64,000 nucleotides of DNA from a virus (IMGVR_UViG_3300025534_000004:83744-147743), one strand, 5' to 3'; counted from the stretch's first letter, positions 18,345-45,437 are shown. Program-made: numbers and translations. The notes: generated by a model from the letters alone, not told the origin.

Positions 18345-18542
18345 ATGCGCACGCCCAAGCGCAAGCCAGTCCGGCCGCGCAATCCGTTTGCGTTGGCGCT
18401 CATCACCGACCCCGCATTCAGGACGAAAATCGCCAAGTCCACCGCCGAGCGCGAGGAACAGCGGGGCGGTTGGAGCCGCAAGGCCAAGCACAAGAAGGTC
18501 CTGATCTCCGTGGACGGCGACCAGCCGTCGGATGATTCCTAG
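18345..18542 (+). CDS. ArfA-like alternative ribosome-rescue peptide
   Basis: ALITDPAFRTKI...GGWSRKAKHKK vs E. coli ArfA ALLHDPLFRQRV...GSYMRKGKH. Confidence 0.6.
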   Translation: MRTPKRKPVRPRNPFALALITDPAFRTKIAKSTAEREEQRGGWSRKAKHKKVLISVDGDQPSDDS

Positions 18543-18556
18543 CAGGAAACCCCATC

Positions 18557-18802
18557 GTGACCCCCTTTGCGCGCATCCGGTCCATCCTCGCCGCTGTTTG
18601 TGGGATCGAGGACGCCTCGACCATAACCCCGTTGACTACCCTCGATGAGGACCTCGGCTTCGACGCCCTCGATTTCGGCGAGACCGCTTCTCGTATCGAG
18701 GAAGAATTTGGTATCGAAATCCCCCTCGGCGAGGAAATGGCGTGGACCAATTTGGCGTCCATCCTTGCCGATGTCGAGGCCAAGCTCCGCGAGACGCCGT
18801 GA
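18557..18802 (+). CDS. acyl carrier protein homolog lacking the phosphopantetheine Ser
   Basis: EDLGFDALDFGE..IEEEFGIEIP (canonical DLGADSLD..LEEEFGIEIP). Confidence 0.8.
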   Translation: MTPFARIRSILAAVCGIEDASTITPLTTLDEDLGFDALDFGETASRIEEEFGIEIPLGEEMAWTNLASILADVEAKLRETP

Positions 18803-19695
18803 TGGAGCATGAGTGCCTCATCGTCATCGGGGACTGGGCGGGGATCGGGCATGGTCAGTCGGATATGTTCGTCTACCACGCCAATCGCCCGATTGACGAG
18901 CAGCGCCGCGCCTTTCTCGCAAGCACGGACCTGACCGGTCTTTGGCTCGCAAAAACGGACCGGGTCGGTTTTTGGCTCGATCATCTCTGTGGTACTCGGC
19001 AGCCCGACGACCCAAACGCGATCTGTACGGAACGCGGGGATGACTGGATCAATGCCTACCATATCGCGATCCTGCGCCGCTATGGCATGGATTGCAGTCG
19101 CCTCGGCAACAGCGACCCTTGTGGTTTTGCCCCGAAGCCGGTGGATTTCGCACATCTGATCCTTCGGTTCATCAGCCTGTCACTGCCGGATTTCGAGTGG
19201 TCCGAGCTACGGCACACCAACCTGCGGGAATGGTTGGAGAACCCCGGAAACAATGCCAGTACGCCATGGAGGGACCTCCCGCAGCGGGTCCTGAACGACG
19301 GCTGGAAGAACAGGAACCTCGACGGGATATTCGGCTACGGCATCTATGGTGGTGCCAGCAATGATGGCCTTGCCGACAAAAAGCAGCACGACGACAGCGT
19401 CGATTACGCGCGAAAGCTCGAAGCAGCGCGGATACGCCACTTTCGCCTGACCAAGAACGACGCGCGCACTCATGGCCGGATCGTCGAGGAGTTTCCCTTT
19501 GAGGCACGGGGCGTGAAAGTGCCGCCGAGCCATGAATCGGAAGCTTGGTGGTCATTCCTCGCACGGGTCCATGATTTCACGGAGGAAGCCGAGGGACGGG
19601 TGATGCTGGCAGGTGACCGCTTCTTTTTCGACAGCCTTCACGACTGCGTTTTGTTCAAACTGCGTTGGACGACATTCAACAATCCACACGAGTGA
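18802..19695 (+). CDS. hypothetical protein with C-terminal paralog-family motif
   Basis: FFDSLHDCVLFKLRW; TGATG coupling to ACP gene. Confidence 0.65.
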   Translation: MEHECLIVIGDWAGIGHGQSDMFVYHANRPIDEQRRAFLASTDLTGLWLAKTDRVGFWLDHLCGTRQPDDPNAICTERGDDWINAYHIAILRRYGMDCSRLGNSDPCGFAPKPVDFAHLILRFISLSLPDFEWSELRHTNLREWLENPGNNASTPWRDLPQRVLNDGWKNRNLDGIFGYGIYGGASNDGLADKKQHDDSVDYARKLEAARIRHFRLTKNDARTHGRIVEEFPFEARGVKVPPSHESEAWWSFLARVHDFTEEAEGRVMLAGDRFFFDSLHDCVLFKLRWTTFNNPHE

Positions 19696-19737
19696 ATTCC
19701 CCAAACACCATTAGCGATTTCAGAAGGACATTTGAGA

Positions 19738-20073
19738 ATGCAAGCTTTCAAGCGAGAAATCGCGTCGGCCTTTGCTGGCCTTGGCGTCGTCGGCGGCGCA
19801 GGCATCGCCGTCTTTCTCATCCTCCTCCTCCGGGCCGCCGTGCTCGCATGGGCATGGAACCATTTTGCAGTTGCCCTCGGCGCCGTCCCCATCGGCATGG
19901 CTATGGCATTTGGCATCATGCTGACACTTCGCCTGTTCTCCGGCTTCAATATCGGAAGCGAGGCATCCGTCAAAGCCAAGGGTTTAGTCGGCTTCGCCAT
20001 GCTGCTTTTCACCGAGGCCCTCCGGATGCTGCTGTTCTGGGGCATTCTCGTCGTCGTCTGGGCCTTCGTCTGA
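19738..20073 (+). CDS. membrane protein (about 3 TM)
   Basis: Hydrophobic helices. Confidence 0.7.
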   Translation: MQAFKREIASAFAGLGVVGGAGIAVFLILLLRAAVLAWAWNHFAVALGAVPIGMAMAFGIMLTLRLFSGFNIGSEASVKAKGLVGFAMLLFTEALRMLLFWGILVVVWAFV

Positions 20074-20123
20074 CGGCCGGGGCCGAGGGGCTCCGGCGCG
20101 CCCCTCGGCCACTAAATATCGTC

Positions 20124-21548
20124 ATGCGTGCCCTGCATTTTTCCGACCCCGCCCTCTCCCCGCAGGTCCTTTCGCTCATCGCGGAGGCCCAGTCCCTTCG
20201 CCTCGCTCTCGACGCCCTCCTGACCGAGCACCCGCAGGCCGGGCGCGCGGTCGTGGCGCATCTGCACGGGCGGCTTGACGAACTGGGGATCGGGCAGGCC
20301 ATCAAGGGCGCGGCCAAGGGCCTGTTCAAAAGTGCCTCCGCCGTCAACGCCAAGATCAACCAGCTTGGTGCGCTCCTACAGAACACCAAGCCGGTGCAGG
20401 ATTTCGACGCGCGCTTCGAGGCCCTGAAAGGGACGCTGGCCCGGAAGTTTCCGAGGCTTGCCGCGACGGTCGAGGGCTACGGGCGCTGGGCCAAGCAGCA
20501 CCCGCGCCTGCAAGCCTTCATCATCGGGATGCTGACAGCCTGCGCCAGCATCGCCGCCGGTCCGGCGGGCGGCGCCATCGTGGCGGCCATCATGCGGGGC
20601 GGCAACGAACTCATCAAGGGCTCGAAGCTCAGTACCGCCATCGGCAAGAGCGTGAAGGGTGCGGCCATCGGCTGGCTGGCGGGATACGGAATCAAGACCA
20701 TTGGTAACGCGCTCGCGGCGAACATGCTGCCGACGCCCGAGACCCTGCAAATGATCCAGCATTACCGCCTCTGGAACGTGCAGTACCGGTACACCGTCAA
20801 CGGCCAGACCCTTGTCAATATCGAGGGCATGGTCAACGGCGACATGCGCGAGAAGCTCAGGGCGGCGTGGAAGGCGTTCCATGCCGCCAAGAACGCGGCG
20901 GCGCAGGCGGCCTTCGAACATTCGGAGAACACGGACAGGCTGTACGCGCGGGCGGCCAAGGCGCTGGTGGATTTCCAGACATTGGCGGATCAGGCGTTCG
21001 ATCCGGCCGGGGAGACCCAGCGGATCGTCCAGAGCGAGATCGCCTCGAACCACCAGATGTACAACGACGTGGTGAACAACGCCGAACGCGCCAAGGACGG
21101 CATCCGGAAACTCGGCAGCTTCGTTGCCGCCACCTTGCAGGGCCGCCTTGCCGCCAAGGACACCGGCAACCAGCCCGCCCCGGCACAGCCGTCGCCGCAG
21201 GCGTCCGCTGTCCAGCCCGCCCCTCAGGCCGCCCCACAAGCCCCACAAGCCCCACAGGCCGCCCAAGCGGCGCAGCCACCTGTGCAGGATAATGCAGGCG
21301 CCGCGACCGGCAGGGTCTATCCGACCAACCCGAAGCTCTGGCAGCGGGCACTCGCGCTGGGCCAGCAGCAAAACCCGAATGACCGCCATGCGGCCGTGGA
21401 ATATGCCAAGAGCTACTACAAGAACCATGGCGGGCGGGTCGCACGTGGCCCGGCCCCGGCTGGCAATGCCGCCAAGCCCGGTGCTCCCCGTAGGGCCAAC
21501 CCACCACGCCGGGCTCCATCGCAACCCGCCTTTCGCCGCGCTTCATGA
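20124..21548 (+). CDS. late, putative internal/ejection protein
   Basis: TAAATA at 20113-20118; Gly/Ala hydrophobic hairpin; P/Q/A-rich linker. Confidence 0.65.
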   Translation: MRALHFSDPALSPQVLSLIAEAQSLRLALDALLTEHPQAGRAVVAHLHGRLDELGIGQAIKGAAKGLFKSASAVNAKINQLGALLQNTKPVQDFDARFEALKGTLARKFPRLAATVEGYGRWAKQHPRLQAFIIGMLTACASIAAGPAGGAIVAAIMRGGNELIKGSKLSTAIGKSVKGAAIGWLAGYGIKTIGNALAANMLPTPETLQMIQHYRLWNVQYRYTVNGQTLVNIEGMVNGDMREKLRAAWKAFHAAKNAAAQAAFEHSENTDRLYARAAKALVDFQTLADQAFDPAGETQRIVQSEIASNHQMYNDVVNNAERAKDGIRKLGSFVAATLQGRLAAKDTGNQPAPAQPSPQASAVQPAPQAAPQAPQAPQAAQAAQPPVQDNAGAATGRVYPTNPKLWQRALALGQQQNPNDRHAAVEYAKSYYKNHGGRVARGPAPAGNAAKPGAPRRANPPRRAPSQPAFRRAS

Positions 21549-21668
21549 GGCCGCCGCGACGCAGGTCGTCGCAGCAGGCGGTCGATTGCCGGATTTGGGC
21601 TGGCGCGCACCCGATAATTTGGTGTAAATACCCACATTATCTCAGTCCATTTTCAGAAGGCGATTTCA

Positions 21669-22238
21669 ATGCGGCTCGACGAGTTTTCCGGCGCTCCCAA
21701 ATTGCGGACGCTCTACGTCAAGCGCCCCCTCCTGAACGGTGAGCAGTTTCGCGCATGGGCGAAGTCCCAAGGCTTTACCTCCACCCTCCCCGCCGCCGAC
21801 CTGCACGTCACGATTGCGTACAGCAAGGAGCCGGTCGATTGGCGCAAGGTCAAGCCCCATGAGGACAAGCTCGTGGTCGAGGGTGGCGAGCGCCGGATCG
21901 AGGTGCTCGGTAAGGACGCGATCACCCTCGTGTTCGCGGAGCCGAGGTTGCACGCGCGGTGGGCCGAACTGATCGACGATGCCGGATGCTCGTGGGATTA
22001 TCCGGGATACAAGCCGCACGTCACGATCAGCTACGAGGGCAAGGGCATCAAGCCCTCGAAGCTCGACCCGTACACCGGCCCGCTGGTGTTCGGGCCGGAA
22101 ATCCTCAACGAGGTCGATGAGAACTGGTCCGACGATGTCGTCGAGGACCCGCTCACCGATGTCGAGACGCGTTCCTTGGCCGAGGCCATGCGCGCAATGC
22201 TGGGTAGCCTCCGGGCTCCCTTGGGAGGAAACCTCTGA
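21669..22238 (+). CDS. 2H phosphoesterase, Acb1/T4 gp57B-like (anti-CBASS candidate)
   Basis: Two HxT motifs LHVTIAYS and YKPHVTISY; TAAATA at 21625-21630. Confidence 0.8.
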   Translation: MRLDEFSGAPKLRTLYVKRPLLNGEQFRAWAKSQGFTSTLPAADLHVTIAYSKEPVDWRKVKPHEDKLVVEGGERRIEVLGKDAITLVFAEPRLHARWAELIDDAGCSWDYPGYKPHVTISYEGKGIKPSKLDPYTGPLVFGPEILNEVDENWSDDVVEDPLTDVETRSLAEAMRAMLGSLRAPLGGNL

Positions 22239-22413
22239 TGCGATGCCTCGCCACGGCCCTTCTGCTTCTCGCTCTGTCCGCGTGTGGGCAAACCATCGAT
22301 CCCGGCAGCATCAAGATCAGGGCGAATTTCGACAGCGAGAACGAGTTGATGAACGTCCTGCTTGGCGATGACGGTGTCGGTGTCCGGTTCCGCTTCGTCG
22401 CGTCGAGGTTCTG

Positions 22414-23051
22414 ATGCGGCGGCGCGAAATACTCCGCGAAGGAAAGTGGTGGGACGATAGCCCCACCATTACCCTGAATCACGGCACATCGAGTGCTCTC
22501 GTTCCAGCGATCCGCAAACACGGTTTACAGCCTCCATCTGCTCAGATGGAGGGCTACGTCCGCTCCATCCTCCGCGACTACCTTCCCGAGGAGCAGTGGC
22601 CTCCGGGCCTTCTGAATGCCGCCCTGCAAGCCGCGCTCGGATCAGCCATCCATAAGCGTCGGTCCACGCCAGATACGGGGCCGGTGCTCTATTTTTCACT
22701 GATTCCGACGCTACCGAGAGTTATGCCGCAGCCACTTGCCAGACCGGCGATGAGCTTGCCGGTGACGTGCTGACCGCTCTTGAACGCCACACTGGCCGTC
22801 ATTTCCTGCCGCGCTATGCCGGGGCCATGCCAGTAATCATCGAAGTGGAAATCCCCAAGGACTGGTGCATCTGGCGCCAGCCCATCGACCGTCTACGAGA
22901 TCGGATGTTCATAGTGTGGGATGAGCAAACCGCCGATGCACGCGAGTTCGACAACCGTGATGCATTCCTCGCCGATGTCATGTGGCGTGAGGAGGCCCGT
23001 GTCGCACGTCCGGTTCCGCCCGAGATGATCACTGCCATCTGCGAGGTCTGA
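22414..23051 (+). CDS. ADP-ribosyltransferase-like protein, split by 1-nt deletion in T-run near 22695
   Basis: LNHGTS..IRKHGL; restored frame YFFTDSDATESYA..VIIEVEIP..EEARV..VPPEMI. Confidence 0.55.
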
Positions 23052-23148
23052 ACGGCAAAATCTGGTGCCTCGCACGAGGATTATTGCGACCGGACTTCGC
23101 TCTATGCTACTCATTGGGTCATTTCAGAAGCCCATCTGAGGAAGTTCC

Positions 23149-26275: not shown

Positions 26276-27028
26276 TCAGAGGCGGGATTCCGCAATCCCG
26301 GCGGCAAAGACGACCCGATCCACACCGATGGCGATTTCCAGCACCAGCACGTCGGTCTCGATCCATTCCTTTTTCTTGTTCTGGAAGCGATTCTTCACCG
26401 GAAAGTCCTTGCGCTTGCTGATGGAGCAGACCTCCATCCAGCGGTCGCCGGTATCGACCTCGATGTCCATGGTCCTGAGGCTGTAGTCCGGCAGCCGGTC
26501 GGAGGGCACGATGCGGGTCGGCAGGCCGGTGGCGGTGGCGATCATCCGGCGCACCGGCTCAAGGGACTTCTCCTGATAGTCGTTCGCCGTGTCCGCGCTA
26601 TAGGCGCACTGGAATTCCTGCTGATAGAACTCCTTGAGCCGCATATGCGAGAGGACCTTGTCCTGCTCGACGCGGAAGCTCTTGCCGACCTGCCAGCAGC
26701 AATAGGGCAGCCGCACGCCGTCGTGGGAGGCCAGCCGATGCGTCATCCACGCATAGGTGGACGGCGTCGTCTCCGGCCGCGCGACCAGCACCGGCTCGTT
26801 CTCGTCGTGCCGCACGAAGGTCCAGAGGTCCTCCGGCGCGTAGTTGGGGTTCACCAGCGCCATCGGGAGCATCATGGGTGCCTCGACGCGCTCGATCTCC
26901 CACGCGCGGTTCTGGCCGCGCAAGAAGGCGGCAACCTCGTCAGCGAAAAACGTCACGACGCGTTCGCGGGCCTTGATCTCGCGCTCGGACCAATGCACCA
27001 GCCCGTTGATGTTGTAGAGGGGACGCAT
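26276..27028 (-). CDS. class II aminoacyl-tRNA synthetase catalytic domain (GlyRS-like), no anticodon-binding domain
   Basis: ARPETT, QVGKSFRVE..RLKEFYQQEFQ (motif 2), LEIAIGVDRV (motif 3) at C-terminus. Confidence 0.8.
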   Translation of the reverse strand: MRPLYNINGLVHWSEREIKARERVVTFFADEVAAFLRGQNRAWEIERVEAPMMLPMALVNPNYAPEDLWTFVRHDENEPVLVARPETTPSTYAWMTHRLASHDGVRLPYCCWQVGKSFRVEQDKVLSHMRLKEFYQQEFQCAYSADTANDYQEKSLEPVRRMIATATGLPTRIVPSDRLPDYSLRTMDIEVDTGDRWMEVCSISKRKDFPVKNRFQNKKKEWIETDVLVLEIAIGVDRVVFAAGIAESRL

Positions 27029-27061: not shown

Positions 27062-27304
27062 TTAAGGGTTCTGCGGGGTGAACAGGCGCTTTGCCGTGTC
27101 GTAGAGCGCGTCGGCAGCGCGGTTGAACTCCTCCTGCTCCTCCGCGACATAATCGGCCGTGGAATACTGCCCGGTGTAGCCGGAGGCGTTCTTGCGGGCA
27201 TCGGTCAGCTTCGCCTCGGCCGCCAGCGCCGCCGCGAGGGCCTCGAAGAACTCAAGGGCCTCGGGCTTGGCGGGCGTCACATCAGATGCGTTCAGGATCG
27301 TCAT
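27062..27304 (-). CDS. hypothetical protein
   Basis: ATGA overlap; GAGG RBS. Confidence 0.6.
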   Translation of the reverse strand: MTILNASDVTPAKPEALEFFEALAAALAAEAKLTDARKNASGYTGQYSTADYVAEEQEEFNRAADALYDTAKRLFTPQNP

Positions 27305-28170
27305 ACGTCCTCTGTGAGTTCGATGGTGGTGATCGGCTGGCCCATGAGCAGCATTCCGCTGACCGGCGGCTCCACGCGGGTCAGCGACATGGGATCGGCC
27401 ACCAGCGCCGCGTAAAGCTCGTCCAAGAGGCGACCGAGGACATTCCGGCCACGCAGCAGGCCCGCGCCGCATGGCATGGCGCCCCAGAAATCGTCCTTGA
27501 AGCTCTGCTCCACGATGGGCCGCCCGCCCGTGGCGAGGAGCACATCGCCGAAGCTGACGAAGTTCTGGATCAGCTTGACGCGGAGCACCCATGCCATCAG
27601 GGGCACCCGGACCTCCATCCAGTCCGGACGGCTGCGCTCCTCCCGGAAGGGCGCACAAACCGCCTTGGCGGCCATGGGACTGGCCTGCGCGATGATCTTC
27701 TCCTGCATCTCCGGCCAGTGCGGGAAGCGCATGGCCTGATACAGGGCCTCGGAGGTGCGGATGGCGATGCCGTTCACCAGCAGCGGGAACCCGGCCGCCA
27801 TGTTGGAACAGCCGCCATTCGCATCCCGCGTCTTGCAGAACACCGCGCAGTCGGCCACCCGGTAGGTCCGGACCGGGTAGACCTCCTCCGGTCGCCGGGC
27901 GGGCACGGACGCCGGTTCGAGATGGCTCACCGGGACGAAGCGATAGACATGGTTCACCTCGTCATCCGTCACCACCTCCGGAATGTCGTAGCCAAAGTCC
28001 GCCGCCTTGAAGCGGACCGCGACCTTCCCCGGAGGGGGCTCGTATCTGTCGGTGACCACGCCGATGGTGCCGACCGACAACGGCAGCGCGCAGGCTTCGA
28101 ACCGGTCGGTGCTGACCGCCGAGATACGCACGGGATCACCGGCCCTGAAAACCGGAGGCTGGGCGTCCAT
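27301..28170 (-). CDS. NADAR/YbiA-family protein with N-terminal extra domain
   Basis: TSEALYQAMRF, SPMAAK, RPDW, LLATG.RPIVE, DFWG, GRNVLGRLL. Confidence 0.88.
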   Translation of the reverse strand: MDAQPPVFRAGDPVRISAVSTDRFEACALPLSVGTIGVVTDRYEPPPGKVAVRFKAADFGYDIPEVVTDDEVNHVYRFVPVSHLEPASVPARRPEEVYPVRTYRVADCAVFCKTRDANGGCSNMAAGFPLLVNGIAIRTSEALYQAMRFPHWPEMQEKIIAQASPMAAKAVCAPFREERSRPDWMEVRVPLMAWVLRVKLIQNFVSFGDVLLATGGRPIVEQSFKDDFWGAMPCGAGLLRGRNVLGRLLDELYAALVADPMSLTRVEPPVSGMLLMGQPITTIELTEDV

Positions 28171-28171
28171 C

Positions 28172-28693
28172 TCAGAGTCCATCCCGGAAACGGGCCGCCA
28201 GCACCTTGCGGGCGGGATGGCCGTCGTCGAGGGTCTTGGACCAGTCGCGCAGCCGGGCCTTGCCAATCCGGGCGTCGGCCGCACGCAGGATGTCCGTGAA
28301 CTCCCAGTAGTCGTCCTTGAACGGCTCCATGAGCCGGTCGCGCGGCCGGTCGAGGTAGTCACGCAGCAGCAGGGAGATGATATGCGAGGGCTGATGCCGC
28401 CACCCCGGTATGGCCGGGATCGGCTTGCTGGCCTCGTCCCGATAGACGTAGAGGTCCTCGAAGGTGTGGATATACGCGCCGCGAGCCGGGTTGGGCACCA
28501 TGAAGGGACCGGGGAAGTCGAAGATCACCTCCCCGTCCAGCAGAAACCAGTGGCGGGGCAACTGGTAACTGTCGTGGTCCGTCCGATGGGTGTAGGCGTT
28601 GGCGTGGATCGCCAGCGGCAGGCCGGGCACCCAGAGCGCCTCGATACGCGCCTTGAGCTTCGACCACGGCTTCGGTCTATGGGTCCAGCCCAT
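28172..28693 (-). CDS. hypothetical protein
   Basis: WSKLKARIE..ADARIGKARL. Confidence 0.65.
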   Translation of the reverse strand: MGWTHRPKPWSKLKARIEALWVPGLPLAIHANAYTHRTDHDSYQLPRHWFLLDGEVIFDFPGPFMVPNPARGAYIHTFEDLYVYRDEASKPIPAIPGWRHQPSHIISLLLRDYLDRPRDRLMEPFKDDYWEFTDILRAADARIGKARLRDWSKTLDDGHPARKVLAARFRDGL

Positions 28694-30717: not shown

Positions 30718-31596
30718 TCAGGCCGCGAACCGCTCAAACGCAGCGGCATCGTCCGCTTCGTCCTGCCCGGCGAGGCGGGGAGCGGCGCCCTCGAAGATCA
30801 CCTCCACCCGGTTCACGACCTTGGAGAAGATCGGCATGTCGATGACCCGGACCTCGCTGCGCGTCACCATCGTGCCGGGCGCGGGGCGGTGCTTCTCGGG
30901 AATGCGGGCAAGCTCCTCCTCCGTGAAGGCGCGCTCGAACGCCTCCCGGCGCACGAAGGTGCCTTGCCTGAAGAAGGCCGGGTAATCGGTGAAGTTCACG
31001 CCCGCCTCCTGAAACAGGCGCTCCTGCATCTGGGCGCCACTCATGCCCTGCAAGCTCTTGTGCGAGAAATGGTGGTGCGCGGCCATCGAGATCGCATTCT
31101 TGGTCGCATCCATGGTCCGCCACAGCACCATGTTCGCCGCCTCGACGCGGCTCGGAAGCTGGATGACGCGGGCGTCGAAGTGCGGCAGTCGCTCGGCGTA
31201 GCGCCGGAACTCCACATCCTCGCAGGTCAAGACGGCGCGCATGAAAGCAGAGGTGGCGATCCCGGAAAGCACGCTCGCCATCTTCATGATCTTGCCGTCG
31301 AAGAAGATGCTGCCTTTGGGATCAGGCACGTGCCAGACCAAGGAAATCTCGTCCGACTGCACGTAGCCGATGAGCGCATGGGTCTCGGCCACAAGATGCT
31401 TGGTCGTCTCGATCATCGCATTTGTCATGCGAATGTCGTAAGGGCGGTTCATGCCCTTCGTGAAGCGCGAGAAACTCCGGCCATCAATTCTGGCATAGAC
31501 CGGAAGCGTCGGCAGGAACCGGCGCTGGGTCTCGTGGAACTCGTAGGACTTCATGCGTGCGCCGAGTGCGTCGCCGCCGGGGGTCCGCTGTGCCAT
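30718..31596 (-). CDS. tRNA-His guanylyltransferase Thg1-like
   Basis: RIDGRSFSRFT, YVQSDEISL, FDGKIMK, FDARV. Confidence 0.92.
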   Translation of the reverse strand: MAQRTPGGDALGARMKSYEFHETQRRFLPTLPVYARIDGRSFSRFTKGMNRPYDIRMTNAMIETTKHLVAETHALIGYVQSDEISLVWHVPDPKGSIFFDGKIMKMASVLSGIATSAFMRAVLTCEDVEFRRYAERLPHFDARVIQLPSRVEAANMVLWRTMDATKNAISMAAHHHFSHKSLQGMSGAQMQERLFQEAGVNFTDYPAFFRQGTFVRREAFERAFTEEELARIPEKHRPAPGTMVTRSEVRVIDMPIFSKVVNRVEVIFEGAAPRLAGQDEADDAAAFERFAA

Positions 31597-31670
31597 CTCG
31601 AAATCGCTTCGTGTCATGCTTTGGCGGCCATAACGGCGAAACTCCGTCATGACAAGCCATGTTTTTGCGG

Positions 31671-32225
31671 TCAGATGATGGTCAGATAGTGCGGCGGCAC
31701 CGCCTCGGTGAGCCACACGCCATTGTCGCTCAGGAAAAAGACGTGACCGTTCTCCCGCATCGCCTTGGCATCCACTGCGAGGATGATGGGGTTGCCGCGC
31801 CGCCCGCCGACCTTGCTCGCCGTCTCGATGTCCGGGCTCAGATGCACATGATGTCTCCGCATCTTGCGCAGGCCCTCGCGGAAGATCGGCTCGATGAAAT
31901 TCGCCACCGTGCCATGGTAGAGCGTGTCCGGCGGCTCGGCCTGCTGGAAGGCGAGGCGCACGCCCTCCACACTGTGGCCCTGATTGGCACGGATGAGGCG
32001 CTTGTCCGCCGACAGGGCATAGCGGCCCTTGCTGTCCTCAGCGACGATGCGTTCCAGATCGAAGCGGGACAAGAGGAACCCCTGTTCCTTGAGCGCCCGC
32101 AGCAGGTCCGGGACCGGTGTCCAACCCTCAGCGTCAAGGGTCAGCCCAACCGCCTCCGGATTGTGCCGCAACACAAGAGCCATGAATTTGCTGACCCGGA
32201 CCGGATCAAACGTCTTGTCGCTCAT
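31671..32225 (-). CDS. kptA: RNA 2'-phosphotransferase Tpt1/KptA
   Basis: LVLRH, KGRY, IRANQGHS, LYHGT, RHHVHLS, NGVWLT. Confidence 0.93.
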   Translation of the reverse strand: MSDKTFDPVRVSKFMALVLRHNPEAVGLTLDAEGWTPVPDLLRALKEQGFLLSRFDLERIVAEDSKGRYALSADKRLIRANQGHSVEGVRLAFQQAEPPDTLYHGTVANFIEPIFREGLRKMRRHHVHLSPDIETASKVGGRRGNPIILAVDAKAMRENGHVFFLSDNGVWLTEAVPPHYLTII

Positions 32226-32332
32226 GGCGAGCCCCGTACCGATTAATTCGGTTCCTTGCAACTGCCTTTTATTGGAACAGGGGCGGCGGACCGTCAAGGA
32301 TCGTGAAACTCCAGCCACCCAGCCGGTCGCTT

Positions 32333-32899
32333 TCATCCCTCCGCACCGATGATGTCGCCGGGCTTGAACATCTCGAACTCGGTCAGCAGCCATGTGGCCA
32401 CCAACTCGGCGTCCAGTGGCAGGAGGATGCAGCGGTCCGGGTCGCTGATGAGTTTGGGTCGCTCGCCGCGCCACGAAACGGGGGCCTTCTCGCCATTGCG
32501 GATGATCGCCTTAACGCTCAGCGTCCCACTCTCATTCACCGCGAGGACCTGACCGATCTCCAAGGCATGGGAGTTCTCGCCCACGCTGACCGAGTAGCAG
32601 AGCACGGCGCCGGGTTCGACCGTCCGGCCCGTCATGTCGGTCACGGGCGCGATGATCGGGTTGCCCTCGGCATCCACCAGATCGACCTTGGAGTATGGAA
32701 GGCGCACCTCCTTCTCCACCCCATCGACCGCTATGGTCAACTCCGATCCAGAGATGCGCTTGACCGTGCCAAGCTTGCCCTTGTGGCGCCCCTGTTTCAG
32801 GACAACGCGGACGGGGCTCTTGAAATCATCTTCGTGGAGGTAACGCCCATAACGGGCATCGTGCTCGTGCAGTAGGGTATCGAACTGAAATCGCCGCAT
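32333..32899 (-). CDS. hypothetical protein with KOW-like motif
   Basis: VRVVLKQGRHKGKLGTV. Confidence 0.65.
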   Translation of the reverse strand: MRRFQFDTLLHEHDARYGRYLHEDDFKSPVRVVLKQGRHKGKLGTVKRISGSELTIAVDGVEKEVRLPYSKVDLVDAEGNPIIAPVTDMTGRTVEPGAVLCYSVSVGENSHALEIGQVLAVNESGTLSVKAIIRNGEKAPVSWRGERPKLISDPDRCILLPLDAELVATWLLTEFEMFKPGDIIGAEG

Positions 32900-36715: not shown

Positions 36716-36898
36716 CTAGAACTTGGCGTGCCGGACAAGGGTGAGGAGGACCGGCCGCAAGTCATCCAGCGTGGCCGCCTCCGCGATGGCCTTTTCGAGC
36801 GCCTCGCGGAGTTCCAGCCTGCGCGCCTCCAAGACGCCGATGTCGCGCTCGATGCGCAGGGTCCTGATGCGCTCCGCGAGGAAGGAATCATCCAGCAT
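36716..36898 (-). CDS. hypothetical protein
   Basis: Short ORF in operon. Confidence 0.5.
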   Translation of the reverse strand: MLDDSFLAERIRTLRIERDIGVLEARRLELREALEKAIAEAATLDDLRPVLLTLVRHAKF

Positions 36899-36901: not shown

Positions 36902-37114
36902 TCAACGAAACCCCGGCGAGGTCAGGCCGCCGAGGATCATGTCCACGGCGATCTGCCGATTGCGGTGCTGCGACCGCTCCGTGTTGCAGATGGCGATCAG
37001 ACCGGTGGGCAGGTGCGTAACCTTGACGCCGGTCCGCACCCCGACATGCTGGCCGCCCGGCGGGGTGGGTTCATAGGTCTCGACCCGGAGGTCCTGTGGC
37101 GGGATGCCGGTCAT
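36902..37114 (-). CDS. minimal GGQ peptidyl-tRNA hydrolase (release factor domain 3 only)
   Basis: PGGQHV..VKVTHLPTGL..ERSQHRNR. Confidence 0.85.
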   Translation of the reverse strand: MTGIPPQDLRVETYEPTPPGGQHVGVRTGVKVTHLPTGLIAICNTERSQHRNRQIAVDMILGGLTSPGFR

Positions 37115-37410
37115 GGGGTCGCTGCGAGGGCGATGCCGAACACCATGCGCAGGCGTTCGCGGTCAGGCTGGCCGCGCGTGGTGTTGCGCGAGCCACCGAA
37201 GCCCGAGGCGTTGAACTCGGAGCCGCAGCCATCGCAGGCGATGTTGCGCGTACCGCCGCCTTCGGGACCCACGTATAGCCCGCCGCCGCAATCAGGGCGG
37301 CGGCCTCGCATGATCTCCCGAATTTCGACGGCAGAAAGATACTCGCCCCGGTTCGAGGTGCGTTCCTCGACAACGGGCTTACGGAACCATCGGATCAGGA
37401 ATGTGAGCAT
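37111..37410 (-). CDS. small Zn-ribbon protein
   Basis: PDCGG..GPEGG..CDGCG. Confidence 0.55.
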   Translation of the reverse strand: MLTFLIRWFRKPVVEERTSNRGEYLSAVEIREIMRGRRPDCGGGLYVGPEGGGTRNIACDGCGSEFNASGFGGSRNTTRGQPDRERLRMVFGIALAATP

Positions 37411-37464: not shown

Positions 37465-37902
37465 TCAGGCCAGCACCCGCTTCACGACCGCCGAGGCGAG
37501 CTTGCCGTCGTACTGGCCCGCACGCTCGGCCTTGAGGGTCGCCATGATGCCGCCCATGTTCAGGCCCTCGGCCTTCTTCGCCTGCGCGAAGGCTTCGATC
37601 TCGTCCTCGGTCATCTGCGTCGGCAGATAGGCTTCGAGAATGGCCTTCTCGCGGGCGTTCTTGGCGATGTCCTCGGTGCGACCGGAATTCGCCAGTACGG
37701 TGGCCGTCTCCTCGACACCCTTGAGGAACTTGCGCACCACGGCGACCACCTCCTCGTCGGTGAGGGGCCGGGCCGGAGAGAAGTTCTTCTCCCGCGTGGT
37801 GATCTCGCCGAGCACGGTGCCCAGCAGGCCAGCCGCGACGGAATCGCGCGCCTTGCGGGCCGCGATGCTGTCGTTGCGGATGCGGTCGGCGATGGGGCTC
37901 AT
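37465..37902 (-). CDS. GatB/YqeY-domain protein
   Basis: ARKARD..EKAILEAYLPTQM..MGGIM..GQYDGK. Confidence 0.88.
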   Translation of the reverse strand: MSPIADRIRNDSIAARKARDSVAAGLLGTVLGEITTREKNFSPARPLTDEEVVAVVRKFLKGVEETATVLANSGRTEDIAKNAREKAILEAYLPTQMTEDEIEAFAQAKKAEGLNMGGIMATLKAERAGQYDGKLASAVVKRVLA

Positions 37903-38743: not shown

Positions 38744-38770
38744 CGTGTTCCTTTCTGAAATGGGGTTGAG

Positions 38771-38995: not shown

Positions 38996-39012
38996 GGCAA
39001 TGGCTTCCTTGT

Positions 39013-39225
39013 TCAGACGGGCAGAGGCGGGGATCGCATGGCCCGGTCACGGGCAGCGGACCAGCCGCGATGCCATTCGGCGGCTTCGGTGGTGTCCTCG
39101 TACGGACAGTCCATGATCTCGACGCCGCGCCGGAAGGCAGCCTCGCCCCGCTCGAACGGGGTCATCTCGGTGCAGACCGCCGGATAGGCACGGCAATAGG
39201 TCCGGTCGAACGCCTCGGTCGCCAT
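39013..39225 (-). CDS. small protein with Rmf/CrpP-like motif
   Basis: FERGEAAF..CPY..EWHRGW. Confidence 0.55.
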   Translation of the reverse strand: MATEAFDRTYCRAYPAVCTEMTPFERGEAAFRRGVEIMDCPYEDTTEAAEWHRGWSAARDRAMRSPPLPV

Positions 39226-39234
39226 GAGGGGTCC

Positions 39235-40418: not shown

Positions 40419-41972
40419 GTGAGTACCGCGCAAACATTGGAAGCCGACGAAACCACGCGGTCTCGCGTGATGAATGCATTGTTCTTGGCGATCCCTGACT
40501 GCCTGTTCGCCAAGGACCGGGAGGGGCGCTACATTCTGCTGAACGCAGCATCCACGGCCGTGGCGGAGTATGCGGGCCGTCTCCCGCCCGACTCCGACCT
40601 GACCGGGCTCACCGCCAATGACGTGTTCCCACCCAAATTGGCCCAACGCGTTCTTGAGACGGACGACATCGCGCTGAACGGCGGGGTGTCAAGCTTCGAG
40701 GCGCGCATTCCTTCGGCCACCCAGAATGGCGAAGGCCGGTGGTTCCTTGTCTCCAAGGCCCCGTTGCACGACGATGCGGGGCAGATCGTCGGCATTATCG
40801 GCATCGCCAAGGATATTACAGCGCAAAAACGTACCGAACAGACCATCGCCGAGGAGAAGGAGCGCGCCGACCGCCAGCGCGAGGCGGTGGCCCGTTTCCT
40901 GAGCGTCACGGCGCATGATTTGCGGCAGCCGCTACAGGCCGTCCAGTTCTACACCACTGCGCTGGCGCCTTCTGTCCCGCCGGAGGCGTGGCCCCTGTTC
41001 TCGAAGCTTGAGGTCGCGCAGGCGACGGTCAACAGCCTGTTTGAAACCCTGCTCGATGCAACCCGGCTGGATACCGGCATTTTCAATGCGCAACTTGAGG
41101 AATTCGCGGCCAGCGAGGTCTTGGATCAGGTAGCGACCGCAACGGGACGGCTCGCGGAGGCCAAGGGTCTCAAGGCGCACTACCTCCCCTCGGATGCGAT
41201 AATCCGCTCCGACCGTGCCATGCTGACCCGGTTGTTCATGAACCTGACCGAGAATGCGGTGCGCTATACCACGACGGGTCGGGTGATCATCGACTGCATC
41301 GAGCGGGAGGACCGCCTGCTGGTCGAAATCCGCGACAGCGGCATCGGCATCCCGCCGGAACGCCTCGCGCGCATCTGGGAGGAGTCGCGGAATCCCGAAT
41401 CCGGCGGCTTGGGCCTCGGCCTGACCATGGTGCGGCGCATCGCCGACATCCTCGACCTCAACGTGCAGATCAAGTCCGATCTCGGGCACGGCACGACCTG
41501 CATCGTGAGCCTGCCGCTGGTGGCGCGCGGCATCGACGAGACGGATGCCGCCACGGCCGCTTTCCTTGCACGCGGCCACAGGCCGGATTCGGCGTCGCCC
41601 GTGGAGGGGGAGCCGTCCGTCCTCGTCGTCGATGATGATGCGATCCTGCGCGATGCGTTCGATGTCGTGCTGTCGGAGGTCGGCCTGTCGGTGACCGCCG
41701 TCGGCACCTATCCGGAGGCCGCCAAAGCGGTCATCCAGTCCGAACCCGATGTCATGATCATCGACTACCGGCTCATCGGGATAACCGGTGTCGAAATTTA
41801 CCAAAGGCTGTGCGGGAGTTTGGGGCGGAAGGTCCCCGCCATCCTCCTGACCGGAGAGATCAGCGACGAGGTTCGGCGCTTGGCGGCGGAGAACGGGATG
41901 CGCCTGATGCACAAGCCGATCATCACCGCGAACCTGATCGCCGCCGTCAGGGAACTCGCCAAGCAGGACTGA
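40419..41972 (+). CDS. cytoplasmic hybrid sensor kinase (PAS-HisKA-HATPase-REC)
   Basis: FAKDREGRY..GIAKDIT; AHDLRQPL; NLTENAVRYT, DSGIGIP, GLGLGL; VVDDD..DYRL..HKP. Confidence 0.93.
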   Translation: MSTAQTLEADETTRSRVMNALFLAIPDCLFAKDREGRYILLNAASTAVAEYAGRLPPDSDLTGLTANDVFPPKLAQRVLETDDIALNGGVSSFEARIPSATQNGEGRWFLVSKAPLHDDAGQIVGIIGIAKDITAQKRTEQTIAEEKERADRQREAVARFLSVTAHDLRQPLQAVQFYTTALAPSVPPEAWPLFSKLEVAQATVNSLFETLLDATRLDTGIFNAQLEEFAASEVLDQVATATGRLAEAKGLKAHYLPSDAIIRSDRAMLTRLFMNLTENAVRYTTTGRVIIDCIEREDRLLVEIRDSGIGIPPERLARIWEESRNPESGGLGLGLTMVRRIADILDLNVQIKSDLGHGTTCIVSLPLVARGIDETDAATAAFLARGHRPDSASPVEGEPSVLVVDDDAILRDAFDVVLSEVGLSVTAVGTYPEAAKAVIQSEPDVMIIDYRLIGITGVEIYQRLCGSLGRKVPAILLTGEISDEVRRLAAENGMRLMHKPIITANLIAAVRELAKQD

Positions 41973-42048
41973 GGACTGGAACGCTCAGGGTGTCCGGGCC
42001 TCCCCGGCACCCTGAGTTTGACCCGGACCCCGGCCGGGCCGGGTTGCG

Positions 42049-42531
42049 TCACGCGGCAAGGATGGCCGTCCGATAACGCTCCACGAAGCGGTGCCAATTC
42101 GGCACCTCGGTGCTGCGCAGCGGTATCCGGTGCGTACGGATGAGTTCCCGCATCACTGCGACCGGTATCACCGCCTCCGCGATCTGCCCGGCCCGTTCCT
42201 CCGAAAAGCCGTCCGTCGTAATCCGGCCGTCCAGTACGTCCCTGACCATCGCGGGCGTGACATCGCCCTCAAAACGGTCGAGCATGTCGCCGAGCAGAAC
42301 ATTGACACGGCGGCTGATCTCGGCGTTGAGGCCGTGCCTCCCGGCGTCCCCGGCCCGGAACAGCCGGTTCCATTCCTCACAAAGGGGCACGAGCGCACGA
42401 GCCTGCGCGAGCGTCGTTTCGATGTGCGTCGGACCGCCCATCTTCATCGACATAGCAAAGCTGGTCGGGCTCAGAAGTGTCCCAGCCGTCGCGGTACAAA
42501 GTATGGCACCAAGCAACGCACGACGATTCAT
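42049..42531 (-). CDS. secreted protein (Tat-like RR signal)
   Basis: MNRRALLGAILC..SFA. Confidence 0.55.
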   Translation of the reverse strand: MNRRALLGAILCTATAGTLLSPTSFAMSMKMGGPTHIETTLAQARALVPLCEEWNRLFRAGDAGRHGLNAEISRRVNVLLGDMLDRFEGDVTPAMVRDVLDGRITTDGFSEERAGQIAEAVIPVAVMRELIRTHRIPLRSTEVPNWHRFVERYRTAILAA

Positions 42532-42620
42532 CGGTAACATCCTCCGAGAACGCATTGGCCCAAGTGCCAACACGTATTGTGCTTCCTCCTTACCGCCCAT
42601 TTTGGCGGTCACTGCCAACC

Positions 42621-42872
42621 CTAACGTGGGGCAAACAGCAGAAACATTGCCGCCCGGTCCTTGCTCCGAAACGCAACGCCCAAGGCGCCTGCCCATCGGT
42701 AATCCTGTCCTTTGACAAGACCGCTGAGGGCCGGATTGCCGAGGATCGCTGCCGCACAGGCGATGATCTCCTCATCAGACGCCCCATCGGGCAGGACAGC
42801 CTCGACGACATGACCGAAGGCTTGCCTTGCACGCGGAAAGTACGTCCAACGCACCACGTTGGCAAGCGACAT
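42621..42872 (-). CDS. hypothetical protein, paralog family
   Basis: VAFRSKDRAAMFLLF. Confidence 0.55.
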   Translation of the reverse strand: MSLANVVRWTYFPRARQAFGHVVEAVLPDGASDEEIIACAAAILGNPALSGLVKGQDYRWAGALGVAFRSKDRAAMFLLFAPR

Positions 42873-43013
42873 TCCGGCCTACCGCGAAAAAAAATCGGTG
42901 CAAAAGACTGTTTTCATTTTGTTCACACCGAAAAATTCGGTATGACGCCATTGACTTGGTTCGGCGTTTATGGTCCTATCGCGGCCGATTTCAGAACGCC
43001 CTTTGAGGTCCTG

Positions 43014-43946
43014 ATGCGCCCTACCCTCGCCGAACCACCCCGCGCCGATGCCGTGTTCATCCTTCTCGGCTCCCGCGCCGCGCGGGCATGGTTCCCCGAT
43101 TTCCGGCGGCCATCCGACTGGGATGCCATCGCCTCGCACGAGGCCATCTCGCGATGGGCCGACCGGAACCGCGCGAGGATCACTTCCCTGACCCGCAAGA
43201 GCGACCGGAAGATGGCCTGCCGGATGCACGGGGGCGTCCGGATCGAGTTCGAGCTTCTGGGCAGCAACCCCTCGACGGAGATGCTGGCCGAGATGGCGCG
43301 GGCGCGCCGCTTCAAGCCAACCATCTTTCCGGGCGGCGTGGCGGCCTATGCGGCGACGCCTGCGGTGCTCTGGCTGACCAAGCGGAGCCATGCCTACTGG
43401 CCCATCCATTGGGAAAAGACGATGGCCGATCTGCATTGGCTCAAGGCCCGTGCCGCCCCGGCGACGGCCGCCGAATTGGCCTATTACGAGGCCCGGCTTG
43501 CCGAGAACAAGGCGCGGCTCGGTGACCGCAAGGCCAAGCTCGACATGTCGAACGAGGCATTCTTCGCCAAGAGCGAGCGGGCGGTCAGGCGGGTGGTCGA
43601 ACACGACCGCCTGCACGAATGGGTTGCCTATTATGATCGCCCCCTGTTCGAACGCTTCAAGACCGACCTCAGCAAGGCGGCGCTGAGCCGTGCCCTGTTC
43701 GAGCAGGCTCCCATGCTGGACAAGCTCCGCCTCGTCCGCGAGGAGGCGATGGTCATCGCCCTTGAGCGGTACCTCATCCCCGGCAAGCTCACCGACCCTG
43801 CCGAGGCATACGCAAGCGCCCTCAAGCGCATCTGCACGACGCTGACCTCGGGTTGGTTCCGCGACTTCGCCATCGACCACTGGCCCATCCTGAACACTCC
43901 GGACAAGGACTTTGCGCCGCCGGTCATGGCGAGGATCGCCGCATGA
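43014..43946 (+). CDS. nucleotidyltransferase-like phage protein
   Basis: LLGSRA..SDWDAI (GS..DxD); HDRLHEWVA; TTLTSGWFRDFA. Confidence 0.7.
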   Translation: MRPTLAEPPRADAVFILLGSRAARAWFPDFRRPSDWDAIASHEAISRWADRNRARITSLTRKSDRKMACRMHGGVRIEFELLGSNPSTEMLAEMARARRFKPTIFPGGVAAYAATPAVLWLTKRSHAYWPIHWEKTMADLHWLKARAAPATAAELAYYEARLAENKARLGDRKAKLDMSNEAFFAKSERAVRRVVEHDRLHEWVAYYDRPLFERFKTDLSKAALSRALFEQAPMLDKLRLVREEAMVIALERYLIPGKLTDPAEAYASALKRICTTLTSGWFRDFAIDHWPILNTPDKDFAPPVMARIAA

Positions 43947-44377
43947 GACACGATGCGGAAGCGGAAGGCAAGCTCGCCCCTATTTACGAGGCAGTCCGCC
44001 ACGCCTTCACAAATCCCGTTTCGGACACCCCGACGATTCTCCGGCTGGACGTGCAGGGCTCCGACTTCAGCCTGTTCCTCCTGTCGGGACAGCCGGACCG
44101 GTCGGAACGGCCGGGTCGCTGCCCAATTGTCGCCTTCGTGGTGTTCGAGGACGAGAAGGCCGGGGTCGCGGCCTGCGAGGAACTCGGCTTTCCGGCCATC
44201 CGCTATCCTTCGCCGGGCGTCTGCTGCGTCGGCCTGCACCAACCCGACCCCCTGCCGCTCCTCATGGTGCTCGGGCGCATCTGCACCATTCATGAGCGCA
44301 TTCCGCCGGGGGGCGAGTCCCTGCTGGTGCCGTATTTCGGCGAGCGGCTCGTGTTGGGCGCGAGCTACACGCCATGA
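43943..44377 (+). CDS. hypothetical protein
   Basis: ATGA coupling. Confidence 0.55.
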   Translation: MRHDAEAEGKLAPIYEAVRHAFTNPVSDTPTILRLDVQGSDFSLFLLSGQPDRSERPGRCPIVAFVVFEDEKAGVAACEELGFPAIRYPSPGVCCVGLHQPDPLPLLMVLGRICTIHERIPPGGESLLVPYFGERLVLGASYTP

Positions 44378-44455
44378 GACCACACCAAGACCCGCAATCC
44401 CATTTCAGGATGCCCCATAGAAAAAGATTCCCAACCCATCCGCATTGATGAACTG

Positions 44456-44707
44456 ATGCAGGATTTGATGGACGGGCTGCTGATCGCCAAGAACTACCCT
44501 GCTTGGGAGGACGAGGCGCTGGCACTCGAAAACCGCCTTTTCACCTCCCATGACGCGCTGATGATGGACATTGCCGAGGCGCGCAAGGCCGGGATCACCA
44601 CCGTCTCGCGGCTGGCCTCGGAGGATTTCTTTCGGACTTCCAACGACATCCGAGCCTTCCTGCTACGGGTGCTCGCGGACATCAGCCACCCCGGCAGGAC
44701 GGCATGA
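44456..44707 (+). CDS. hypothetical protein
   Basis: Coding-like ORF. Confidence 0.5.
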   Translation: MQDLMDGLLIAKNYPAWEDEALALENRLFTSHDALMMDIAEARKAGITTVSRLASEDFFRTSNDIRAFLLRVLADISHPGRTA

Positions 44708-45153
44708 CCGAGGTCGTCAAGGTCTAGCGTCCGCACAAGAAGCGGATCGGCAATGGCTGGTACAACCGCGATACCACCTTGCTCCTGTCCTGCGGCACCC
44801 GACTGTGCTTCCGGCTGCATAAGAAGGCCCCGCAGGGCTTTCCGATCCGCATCCCCCGGTACGTCGCCCTGCGGCACGGTTCGTGGAGCCAAGCGCACTG
44901 GGAGACCGTTCGCGCCGTCGTGGAGAATATGGGCTACGAGCACTGCTACGGGCCGAAGTACGAGCATGACTGCATTCGCCTGCGCGACTGCGAAGCCCTG
45001 CTGCCGATCAAGATCGCGGGCGCCCTCATGCAGGTCGAGGAATACCTGAGCGGGGGCGACGAAACGCCCTCCCTGCTTTGCGACTGGTTCGGGATCGAGA
45101 TGCCCCCGCTCCCGTCGATTCCGCCGCTCCTGCCACGTCCGGCACTTGCATAA
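44704..45153 (+). pseudogene. hypothetical protein with in-frame TAG at codon 8
   Basis: ATGA-coupled start, TAG at 44725-44727, same frame continues as ORF 44779-45153. Confidence 0.45.
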
Positions 45154-45176
45154 TGTGGTTCAGTCGTCTATAAATA
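45146..45176 (+). promoter_or_regulatory. tmRNA promoter: sigma70-like plus TATAAATA late box
   Basis: TTGCAT-N17-TATAAA overlapping TATAAATA. Confidence 0.65.
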
Positions 45177-45180
45177 CCTC

Positions 45181-45437
45181 GGTTCTGATGACCAACTCGG
45201 AATAGGCTGATCGGACCGGAGGGCAGTACTCCGCCCGTCCACCATTACTCCATGGGCGGGAAATAGGATCGACGACGGCAGTAAAGGACGTTGCGAGGAA
45301 CTCGGTAAGACACGACCGGCCGGGCAACCGGCATCAGTTCATCGTTACAAAGGCCAACGACAACGAGGCTTTTGCTCTCGCCGCCTAAGGCGTGAGCGCG
45401 GAGGCGGGGACCTGCCGGGCAACAGAAGTGGTCCCCA
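45181..45437 (+). ncRNA. ssrA: permuted two-piece tmRNA, tag ANDNEAFALAA
   Basis: T arm CGGAG-GGCAGTA-CTCCG, CCCGTCC-ACCA (45234-45244), 9-nt intervening segment, GGGCGGG-AAATAGGATCGAC (45254), G3:U70, tag ORF 45353-45388; outer ends approximate. Confidence 0.95.

Follow-up and report, generated by a model that had tools for sequence, protein, structure and literature searches.

Does a virus that carries several genes for ribosome rescue within a short distance possess a rescue system, or has it collected separate parts? Ribosome rescue is essential in bacteria, and abortive-infection nucleases create stalled ribosomes that rescue factors clear. The question is raised by a 64,000-nucleotide stretch of virus DNA from IMG/VR (IMGVR_UViG_3300025534_000004:83744-147743), here called the window, from whose first letter positions are counted unless another record or contig is named. 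In a sequence-only reading, the interval 18345-45437 had been taken for a single system with counterparts of all three bacterial rescue routes: a transfer-messenger RNA (tmRNA), a peptide resembling ArfA and a release factor (RF) domain with the catalytic GGQ motif. Our analysis partly confirmed the observation but not its interpretation as a system. We find that the interval belongs to the accessory part of a giant phage genome, in which three unlinked ribosome rescue genes stand among genes for RNA repair and anti-defence. The best explanation for the whole, to which we assign a probability of about 0.68, is that the three are separately acquired accessories and not one machine. They are the following:

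18345-18542, plus strand: putative ArfA-type rescue peptide, 65 residues, basic (MRTPKRKPVRPRNPFALALITDPAFRTKIAKS...WSRKAKHKK...); Pfam ArfA match sub-threshold, assignment by profile-profile comparison
36902-37114, minus strand: mini-GGQ, a stand-alone RF domain 3 of 70 residues; Pfam RF-1 E 9e-15, GGQ at residues 20-22
45142-45437, plus strand: two-piece (permuted) tmRNA of the alphaproteobacterial type; RF01849 126.2 bits, RF04321 112.7 bits, both full length

Layout and distribution of the rescue genes

The window is the right end of a 147,743-bp virus record (83744-147743) that is about 28% complete according to CheckV, and our analysis thereby covers roughly 30% of the phage genome. Genes for a large terminase, a tail sheath, a tail tube and tail fibres in the left part of the record show that the source is a myovirus. 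The G+C content of the window is about 63%, and its mini-GGQ and ArfA-like proteins are also present on a contig of 484,642 bp, which fits a giant phage of high G+C content. Megablast of 24.6 kb of the window against cultured phages gave zero matches. Genes were chosen by their third-position G+C content, and their proteins were scanned against Pfam, NCBIfam and PHROGs.

The ArfA-like, mini-GGQ and tmRNA genes are 18.5 and 8 kb apart, on differing strands and with about 35 unrelated genes between them. The ArfA-like gene heads a rightward run, followed by an acyl-carrier-protein-like gene and further genes including Acb1. Mini-GGQ lies within a leftward run of 14.7 kb (39915 to 25205), which also carries the genes for Rmf/CrpP-like, YqeY, Tpt1, Thg1 and NADAR proteins and a synthetase core, and the tmRNA belongs to a separate rightward run. 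The genes of the supposed single system are thus unclustered and form no operon. Nor did its components occur together in the other viral records that were searched. The profile of the ArfA-like family, which as a positive control finds this phage at E 8.5e-29, had no match in 50 viral records with a GGQ-domain gene and none in 29 further ones. Among these 79 records, 29 are at least 90% complete and several measure 180-390 kb. Canonical ArfA, as defined by Pfam, was found in 0 of the 50 records, and the same holds for a tmRNA of the alphaproteobacterial type (0/50 tested).

This distribution bears directly on the most specific proposal of the sequence-only reading, which had itself named a lack of co-occurrence of the two genes among the findings that would refute it. 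According to this proposal, the ArfA-like peptide would detect an empty mRNA channel and guide a GGQ domain without tail to the peptidyl-transferase centre, so that both together form a two-part, RF2-independent ArfB. Both genes do reside in one phage, and mini-GGQ has no anchor, which makes a partner plausible; yet the ArfA-like family is absent from all 79 GGQ-carrying records, and the two genes are 18.5 kb apart on opposite strands. Furthermore, the conserved ArfA segment binds domains II/IV of RF2, neither of which the mini-GGQ stub contains, and the partners that are fused to the ArfA-like module in other phages (see below) are not hydrolases. We hence regard the two-part ArfB as highly improbable. 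Also the statement that all three rescue routes are represented went too far, since the GGQ protein has neither the linker nor the basic tail that define ArfB. The consequence for annotation is that tmRNA, ArfA-like gene and mini-GGQ should not be described or modelled as one "system."

Some points weigh against our own reading of separate accessories. The analysed record comprises only about 30% of the phage genome, and the reverse check, for GGQ genes in other phage records with the ArfA-like gene, covers fragments only. Moreover, our data concern the identity, conservation and distribution of the parts, from which we infer every activity that is discussed in the following.

The ArfA-like peptide and its cellular relatives

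The start codon chosen in the sequence-only reading appears right, because a GAGG motif lies 6 nt upstream of the ATG at 18345 and the relatives begin at the same point. Single-protein searches with this open reading frame (ORF) returned the query only from a word-indexed database and nothing from IMG/VR or from cultured phages, and in the NCBIfam scan the family gave noise alone. An exhaustive phmmer search yielded 20 relatives and a profile search 24 clusters, one of them named ArfA by JGI. When the family profile was compared with the PDB, six ArfA chains were the sole matches (best E 0.049). For a comparison with bona fide sequences, we used 25 true ArfAs, which PF03889 had matched in a set of 301 genomes belonging to the same phylum. 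With these, hhalign aligned residues 12-51 over 36 columns at a probability of 92.3% (P 5.5e-7) and a score of 32.8, compared with a maximum of 13.6 in 150 column shuffles and 7.2 for the reversed profile.

In E. coli ArfA numbering, L19, D22, P23, F25, R26, the strand 27-30 and the KH motif all have their correspondence in the alignment. F25-R26 and T27-A30 of the phage peptide stand opposite F25-R26 and Q27-E30 of E. coli ArfA, and AKHK stands opposite the KH motif. In the solved complexes of ArfA, F25 and residues 27-30 bind superdomain II/IV of RF2, and the C-terminus is placed in the mRNA channel (PMC8012679). Like ArfA of gamma- and betaproteobacteria (YhdL; PF03889; PDB 5MDV, 5MGP, 5U4I, 5H5U), which has 55-72 residues, the phage peptide is small and combines a basic N-terminus, a helix of the type "A..LL.DPLFR.R" followed by a short strand, and a basic tail with the KH motif. 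These comparisons support the view that the 65-residue peptide is a divergent ArfA homolog. As in E. coli ArfA, the conserved LLxDPxFR helix and the next strand would recruit a full-length release factor, most likely RF2 of the host, and the basic KHK tail would probe the empty mRNA channel. In this respect the peptide can also be likened to BrfA of Bacillus and ArfT of Francisella. Both of these are short and basic and bring a class I release factor to non-stop ribosomes; ArfT accepts RF1 or RF2 in this role. A sequence similarity to BrfA or ArfT was not detected.

A search of species-representative genomes placed the family solely in Acidiphilium and further Acetobacteraceae, with 1 of 81 sampled genomes of Acetobacteraceae carrying it. 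The chromosomal relatives, ORFs of 61-82 residues in the Acidiphilium and Acetobacteraceae genomes L096-L101, L093 and L095 (MARKRNPMARDLLTNPLYR...DRW.RRAKHK), are ArfA homologs as well, and the cellular gene follows, on its upstream side, a gene for class II DAHP synthase. In all six cellular copies a G+C-rich hairpin of 12-17 bp, followed by a T-run, lies between the KHK codons and the stop; where measured, it is located 57-120 nt before the annotated stop codon. A terminator inside the reading frame explains why these proteins appear to end in a conserved "EPG.GSGDF" and then in random tails. In arfA and brfA, such an in-frame terminator gives stop-less mRNAs that are silenced by tmRNA, with the rho-independent terminator of brfA likewise preceding the stop codon (PMC8012679). 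The Acidiphilium peptides would thus arise from stop-less mRNA only, at times when tmRNA is saturated.

The phage copy seems to have lost this switch. It ends, in contrast to ArfA and to its own cellular relatives, with an ordinary stop codon, and no hairpin with T-run was found before it; the two short phage copies, in the window and on contig L094, both have ordinary stops and no in-frame terminator hairpin. With a normal stop and no internal terminator, the phage gene would escape tmRNA control and be translated whenever it is transcribed, so that the peptide is probably made constitutively.

In the five carrier genomes that were searched, we found two RF-1-domain genes each and no third, from which it follows that these five have no ArfB. 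In contrast, three or more RF-1-domain genes occur in 55 of 80 relatives. A survey of 15,259 genomes reported arfA in 0 of 2,376 Alphaproteobacteria (PMC11633108), which sets this alphaproteobacterial family apart from known ArfA and makes the Acidiphilium proteins a candidate for the first ArfA-type rescue factor of this class.

ArfA-like modules also form the start of longer proteins of 220-315 residues in T4-like phages (P0095, P0100, P0103, P0107, P0111; L130:5603 onward). The module is followed by a beta-rich part and then by a C-terminal domain that resembles a winged helix in a low-confidence model (pLDDT 68) and matches phrog_16215, "virion structural protein." A hydrolase was sought in these longer proteins, and none was found.

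Several observations speak against the assignment as an ArfA that works like its E. coli counterpart. The Pfam ArfA profile (PF03889) was matched below threshold, with E 0.0079 and 16.1 bits against a cut-off of 25.5; the ArfA label given in the sequence-only reading hence holds by profile-profile comparison and misses by the Pfam standard. The KGKGS motif of ArfA is replaced by a longer segment, which reads EEQRGGW with a 4-residue insertion in the phage copy and ...ER..Q.D.W.R in the family. A18 is essential in E. coli ArfA. At this position the phage copy has Ala and most relatives have Asp or Glu, so A18 is not conserved and release factor activation by the family may differ. As to the factor that is recruited, the phage's own release-factor-like gene is of the RF1 type and lacks domain 1. 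Finally, the carriers are one small clade, and the "no ArfB" pattern in their genomes counts as a single phylogenetic event. The RF1-type gene lies upstream of the window:

Record 73738-74433, about 9.3 kb before the window (L091:13738-14433), minus strand: second release factor gene, RF1 type; prfA 171 bits

In its sequence, PRS replaces the codon-reading PxT tripeptide, and an in-frame TGA is found where release factors have Trp.

One may therefore ask whether the ORF is merely a basic nucleic-acid-binding peptide, with a convergent likeness to ArfA that has nothing to do with ribosome rescue. Such a view could build on the missed Pfam and NCBIfam thresholds, on the Acidiphilium gene, which Pfam ArfA did not detect either (genome G055, E<=0.001), and on the longer proteins in which the module is joined to a beta-rich part and a winged-helix-like domain with a match to a "virion structural protein" family. 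We nevertheless consider it quite unlikely, as a profile-profile score well beyond those of 150 composition-matched shuffles, ArfA chains as the only PDB matches, the arfA/brfA-type terminator in 6/6 cellular copies and the absence of a third RF-1-domain gene from five searched carrier genomes all speak against it. We thus retain the reading as a divergent ArfA homolog.

The mini-GGQ family

The tail-less GGQ domain announced in the sequence-only reading is indeed present as a 70-residue RF-1-domain protein. It contains the motifs GGQHVG, THLPTGL and ERSQHRNR and ends in the family-specific sequence DMILGGLTSPxFR. It covers positions 7-65 of the 116 positions of the RF-1 profile, without linker and without basic tail, and corresponds in the NCBIfam models to RF2 residues 224-282 and RF1 residues 219-276, with no codon-recognition superdomain II/IV. 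An AlphaFold2 model reached a pLDDT of 87.5, and the top Foldseek matches were domain 3 of RF1 and RF2 (TM 0.72, about 40% identity), where 62 of the roughly 360 release factor residues are aligned. The protein also matches phrog_20323, "RF-1 domain peptide chain release factor" (73 positions), with E 9e-12.

Its family comprises 88 clusters at 90% identity with lengths of 66-113 residues, mostly about 70. GGQ, G25, R47-S48-Q49, N52 and A56 are invariant, and every catalytic and rRNA-contacting motif of release factor domain 3 is kept, without an anchoring domain. An alignment-based scan of IMG/VR located 77 loci, mostly on contigs of 40-110 kb with G+C contents of 36-65% and including several proviruses. 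No neighbour is conserved, the commonest family being found at 9 of 42 loci, although terminase genes are often near. Among cultured phages there was no relative above 60% identity, distant ones only. Judged by its sequence, mini-GGQ is a member of a conserved and widespread phage and prophage family of about 70 residues that is separate from the ArfA-like gene.

With ArfB (YaeJ) and ICT1, mini-GGQ shares the catalytic GGQ fold, and like them it would be codon-independent. ArfB, however, senses the mRNA channel with a linker and a basic C-terminal helix, whereas the chain of mini-GGQ stops in the helix that follows ERSQ, about 16 residues from its beginning, and is nearer to domain 3 of RF1/RF2 than to ArfB. 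The proteins of phrog_20323, and those of RF-1-domain genes in the tRNA arrays of mycobacteria and mycobacteriophages, are likewise short and consist of the RF-1 domain only; the genes in mycobacteriophages sometimes occur with tmRNA and Pth and were read as extra rescue factors (PMC5966550). The high-GC, proteobacterial-type family of mini-GGQ differs from these other phage RF-1-domain proteins by its own C-terminus, DMILGGLTSPxFR. ArfB-sized GGQ proteins of 130-159 residues, annotated as "peptide chain release factor 1," are encoded by Otagovirus phages and could be a tractable system for the study of phage GGQ proteins:

L131:2498-2890: GGQ protein of Pseudomonas phage phiPsa381, 130 residues
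L132:1998-2477: GGQ protein of phage VCM, 159 residues

Mini-GGQ most likely is a codon-independent peptidyl-tRNA hydrolase that would act alone or with a host factor and not with the ArfA-like peptide. A difficulty for this view is posed by tail-less ArfB, which is inactive; ribosome binding by an isolated GGQ domain is not known, and mini-GGQ may need a further partner. Alternatively, the protein could serve the takeover of the host, either as a decoy for PrmC, the methylase by which RF1 and RF2 are activated, or as a free hydrolase that prematurely releases nascent host chains. It is the exact release factor segment that bears the methylated Gln, Foldseek also returns the RF1-PrmC complex 2b3t, and the family occurs in ordinary temperate phages of 40-60 kb without other translation genes, often near terminase genes. 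A Rmf/CrpP-family gene, moreover, adjoins mini-GGQ in two other phages, yet such genes were found in just 2 of 50 mini-GGQ records, both below threshold. The invariance of the catalytic and rRNA-contacting residues across the family (GGQ, H23, R47-S48-Q49, N52) agrees with an action on the ribosome at least as well as with a decoy, and evidence for toxicity of mini-GGQ is lacking. A takeover function thus seems unlikely to us, and we prefer peptidyl-tRNA hydrolysis.

In the window, mini-GGQ is part of a local run of four genes that starts with YqeY, and a Rmf/CrpP-family gene lies further upstream:

39013-39225, minus strand: Rmf/CrpP-family small protein, 70 residues; Pfam RMF 29.1 bits against a cut-off of 27.9
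37465-37902, minus strand: YqeY/GatB-tail-like protein, 145 residues; Pfam YqeY E 1.4e-24, phrog_1460 E 7e-37
37111-37410, minus strand: ORF of 99 residues with a zinc-ribbon-like CxxG...CxGC motif, seen in the sequence; weak Zn_ribbon match, E 0.04
36716-36898, minus strand: helical ORF of 60 residues, 3 nt downstream of mini-GGQ; third-position G+C 0.90, translation

The zinc-ribbon ORF and mini-GGQ meet in the sequence ATGA, where the stop codon of the former overlaps the start of the latter, a sign that the two may be translationally coupled. The 60-residue ORF had no family match in the Pfam and PHROGs scans, and neither of these two ORFs was found beside other mini-GGQ genes; they accompany the gene in this phage only. 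The 70-residue protein at 39013-39225 exceeds the NCBIfam cut-off for Rmf_CrpP_fam (36.6 bits vs 28) and does not reach that of the RMF equivalog (21.6 vs 40). Its gene is on the same strand as mini-GGQ at a distance of 1.9 kb. A similar pairing exists on two other contigs, L006 (L006:5805-6219), where the Rmf/CrpP-family gene lies 8 nt upstream of mini-GGQ, and L079 (L079:9537-10210), where the two are close. Hibernation factors beside other stand-alone RF-type hydrolases were described by Burroughs and Aravind (PMC6514570). As a general partner of mini-GGQ, Rmf/CrpP was nonetheless dropped in view of the two sub-threshold cases in 50 records. On L006, the gene directly after mini-GGQ (L006:6223-6465) codes for an anti-defence sponge of the Acb2/Tad1-hairpin type.

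The tmRNA and the surrounding accessory genes

The tmRNA that had been predicted within the interval was confirmed. The RF01849 (alpha_tmRNA) match spans the complete model, positions 1-355, and its 126.2 bits compare with a gathering score of 50. In the Rfam alignment, the acceptor stem is GGGCGGG / CCCGUCC, contains a G3-U70 pair and has a CCA end (ACCA), and the tag frame is GCC AAC GAC AAC GAG GCT TTT GCT CTC GCC GCC TAA, encoding (A)ANDNEAFALAA. The tmRNA thus looks complete and working. No SmpB gene (PF01668) turned up among the 147,743 bp of the record, which make up about 30% of the phage genome, and therefore the tmRNA should use SmpB of the host. Together with host SmpB, AlaRS and EF-Tu, it would free ribosomes stalled on broken mRNAs. 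The tmRNAs of huge phages and cluster C mycobacteriophages likewise occur alongside release factors, tRNAs and aminoacyl-tRNA synthetase genes (PMC7162821, PMC9583779); unlike those, the tmRNA described here belongs to the alphaproteobacterial type, permuted and in two pieces (RF01849), and the analysed record has no SmpB.

It might be argued that the tmRNA is an inert passenger, for example a recombination remnant at a host ssrA site, and not a working phage gene. ARAGORN did not call a tmRNA at 45142-45437, no phage SmpB was found in the record, and mobile elements often integrate at ssrA genes (PMC11915505). However, the match spans the entire covariance model with T arm, acceptor stem, G-U pair and CCA intact, the open tag frame ends in ALAA, and no integrase lies beside the gene. 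The identity to Acidiphilium tmRNAs of about 73% over 82 nt further argues against a recent scrap of those genomes, and tmRNAs are known from huge phages and mycobacteriophages (PMC7162821, PMC5966550). We hence judge a passenger role very unlikely and keep to a working phage tmRNA. The same low identity to Acidiphilium tmRNAs made us drop an attempt to assign the host via the tmRNA.

The genomes of huge phages are known to include genes for tmRNA, SmpB, release factors, tRNAs and synthetases (PMC7162821), and RNA repair and ribosome rescue of jumbo phages have been reviewed as a means against RNA-cleaving defences (PMC7824862, PMC9503650). In line with this, the translation-maintenance and RNA-repair accessories of the window could blunt defences that cleave mRNA or tRNA, as others have proposed for jumbo and huge phages before (PMC7824862, PMC7162821, PMC5966550). 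The counter-defence role proposed in the sequence-only reading fits the gene content, and we state it as an interpretation.

Our search of the literature brought up no publication that deals with an ArfA homolog of phages or with the GGQ family of about 70 residues. We may speculate that the GGQ-only phage proteins are a fourth kind of peptide release factor and that, separately, the ArfA homolog and its Acidiphilium relatives are the first alphaproteobacterial ArfA-type pathway; taken jointly, the two proposals are tentative. If the former were true, there would be an anchor-less GGQ hydrolase that does without codon reading, mRNA-channel sensor or ArfA-type adaptor, and its substrates might include peptidyl-tRNA left on split 50S subunits, or ribosomes whose A site is empty. 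The family poses the question by which route a bare catalytic domain gets to the peptidyl-transferase centre. If the latter were true, ArfA-type rescue would extend to Alphaproteobacteria, a class without any case in the large survey. In its ArfA homolog the phage would then have discarded the tmRNA-dependent off-switch, and a viral copy freed of this control would mean that phages tune the back-up rescue route of their host.

The NADAR, Acb1 and Rmf/CrpP-family genes and the RF1-type gene upstream of the window had not been named in the sequence-only reading. Further genes of the two runs around the ArfA-like and mini-GGQ genes, which include the Thg1, Tpt1 and class II synthetase core that, like YqeY, had been named along with the rescue genes and were recovered by Pfam and NCBIfam matches, are:

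31671-32474 (longest ORF), minus strand: RNA 2'-phosphotransferase Tpt1/KptA; Pfam E 1e-48
30718-31716, minus strand: Thg1-like 3'-5' nucleotidyltransferase, directly downstream of Tpt1; Pfam Thg1 E 5e-28, Thg1C E 1e-4
27301-28362 (longest ORF), minus strand: NADAR-domain protein; Pfam NADAR E 1.6e-16
26276-27028, minus strand: class II aminoacyl-tRNA synthetase catalytic core, 250 residues, nearest to GlyRS; Pfam tRNA-synt_2b E 1.8e-9
21669-22238, plus strand: Acb1 anti-CBASS 2H phosphodiesterase; Pfam Acb1 E 7e-37
18557-18802, plus strand: acyl-carrier-protein-like gene, 15 nt past the ArfA-like stop; Pfam PP-binding E 2e-11

Tpt1/KptA is above the equivalog cut-off (NF002014, 245.9 bits vs 239, residues 92-265), and its true start is probably near 32220. 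The RNA ligases RtcB and Rnl, which would complete tRNA repair, were searched in the 148 kb and not found. The 5' part of the NADAR ORF overlaps a SF0329-family gene (28172-28693; SF0329 E 7e-12). For the synthetase core, the NCBIfam GlyRS models gave E 8e-14, far under their cut-offs, and no anticodon-binding domain was detected. The acyl-carrier-protein-like gene is below the cut-offs of the NCBIfam models for such proteins and lies 8 kb from the GlyRS-like core; some class II synthetases in truncated form are known to charge carrier proteins. The tRNA that had been counted among the contents of the interval could not be recovered: ARAGORN called only a tRNA-Met at 1928-2004, outside it, and an Rfam scan of 18000-45600 at E<=0.1 gave only the tmRNA. 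In the Rfam scan of the whole window at gathering threshold, this tRNA-Met was not reported.

The order ArfA-like gene, then Acb1 is seen both in the window, where the two are 3 kb apart, and on the T4-like relative contig L094, where they are separated by about 0.3 kb (Acb1 at L094:5519-6022). Elsewhere in the window, positions 40419-41972 code for a hybrid sensor histidine kinase (PAS, HisKA, HATPase and receiver domains), and a RepA_C plasmid initiator and a ParB-HTH protein are encoded at 50615-51601 and 47604-48587.

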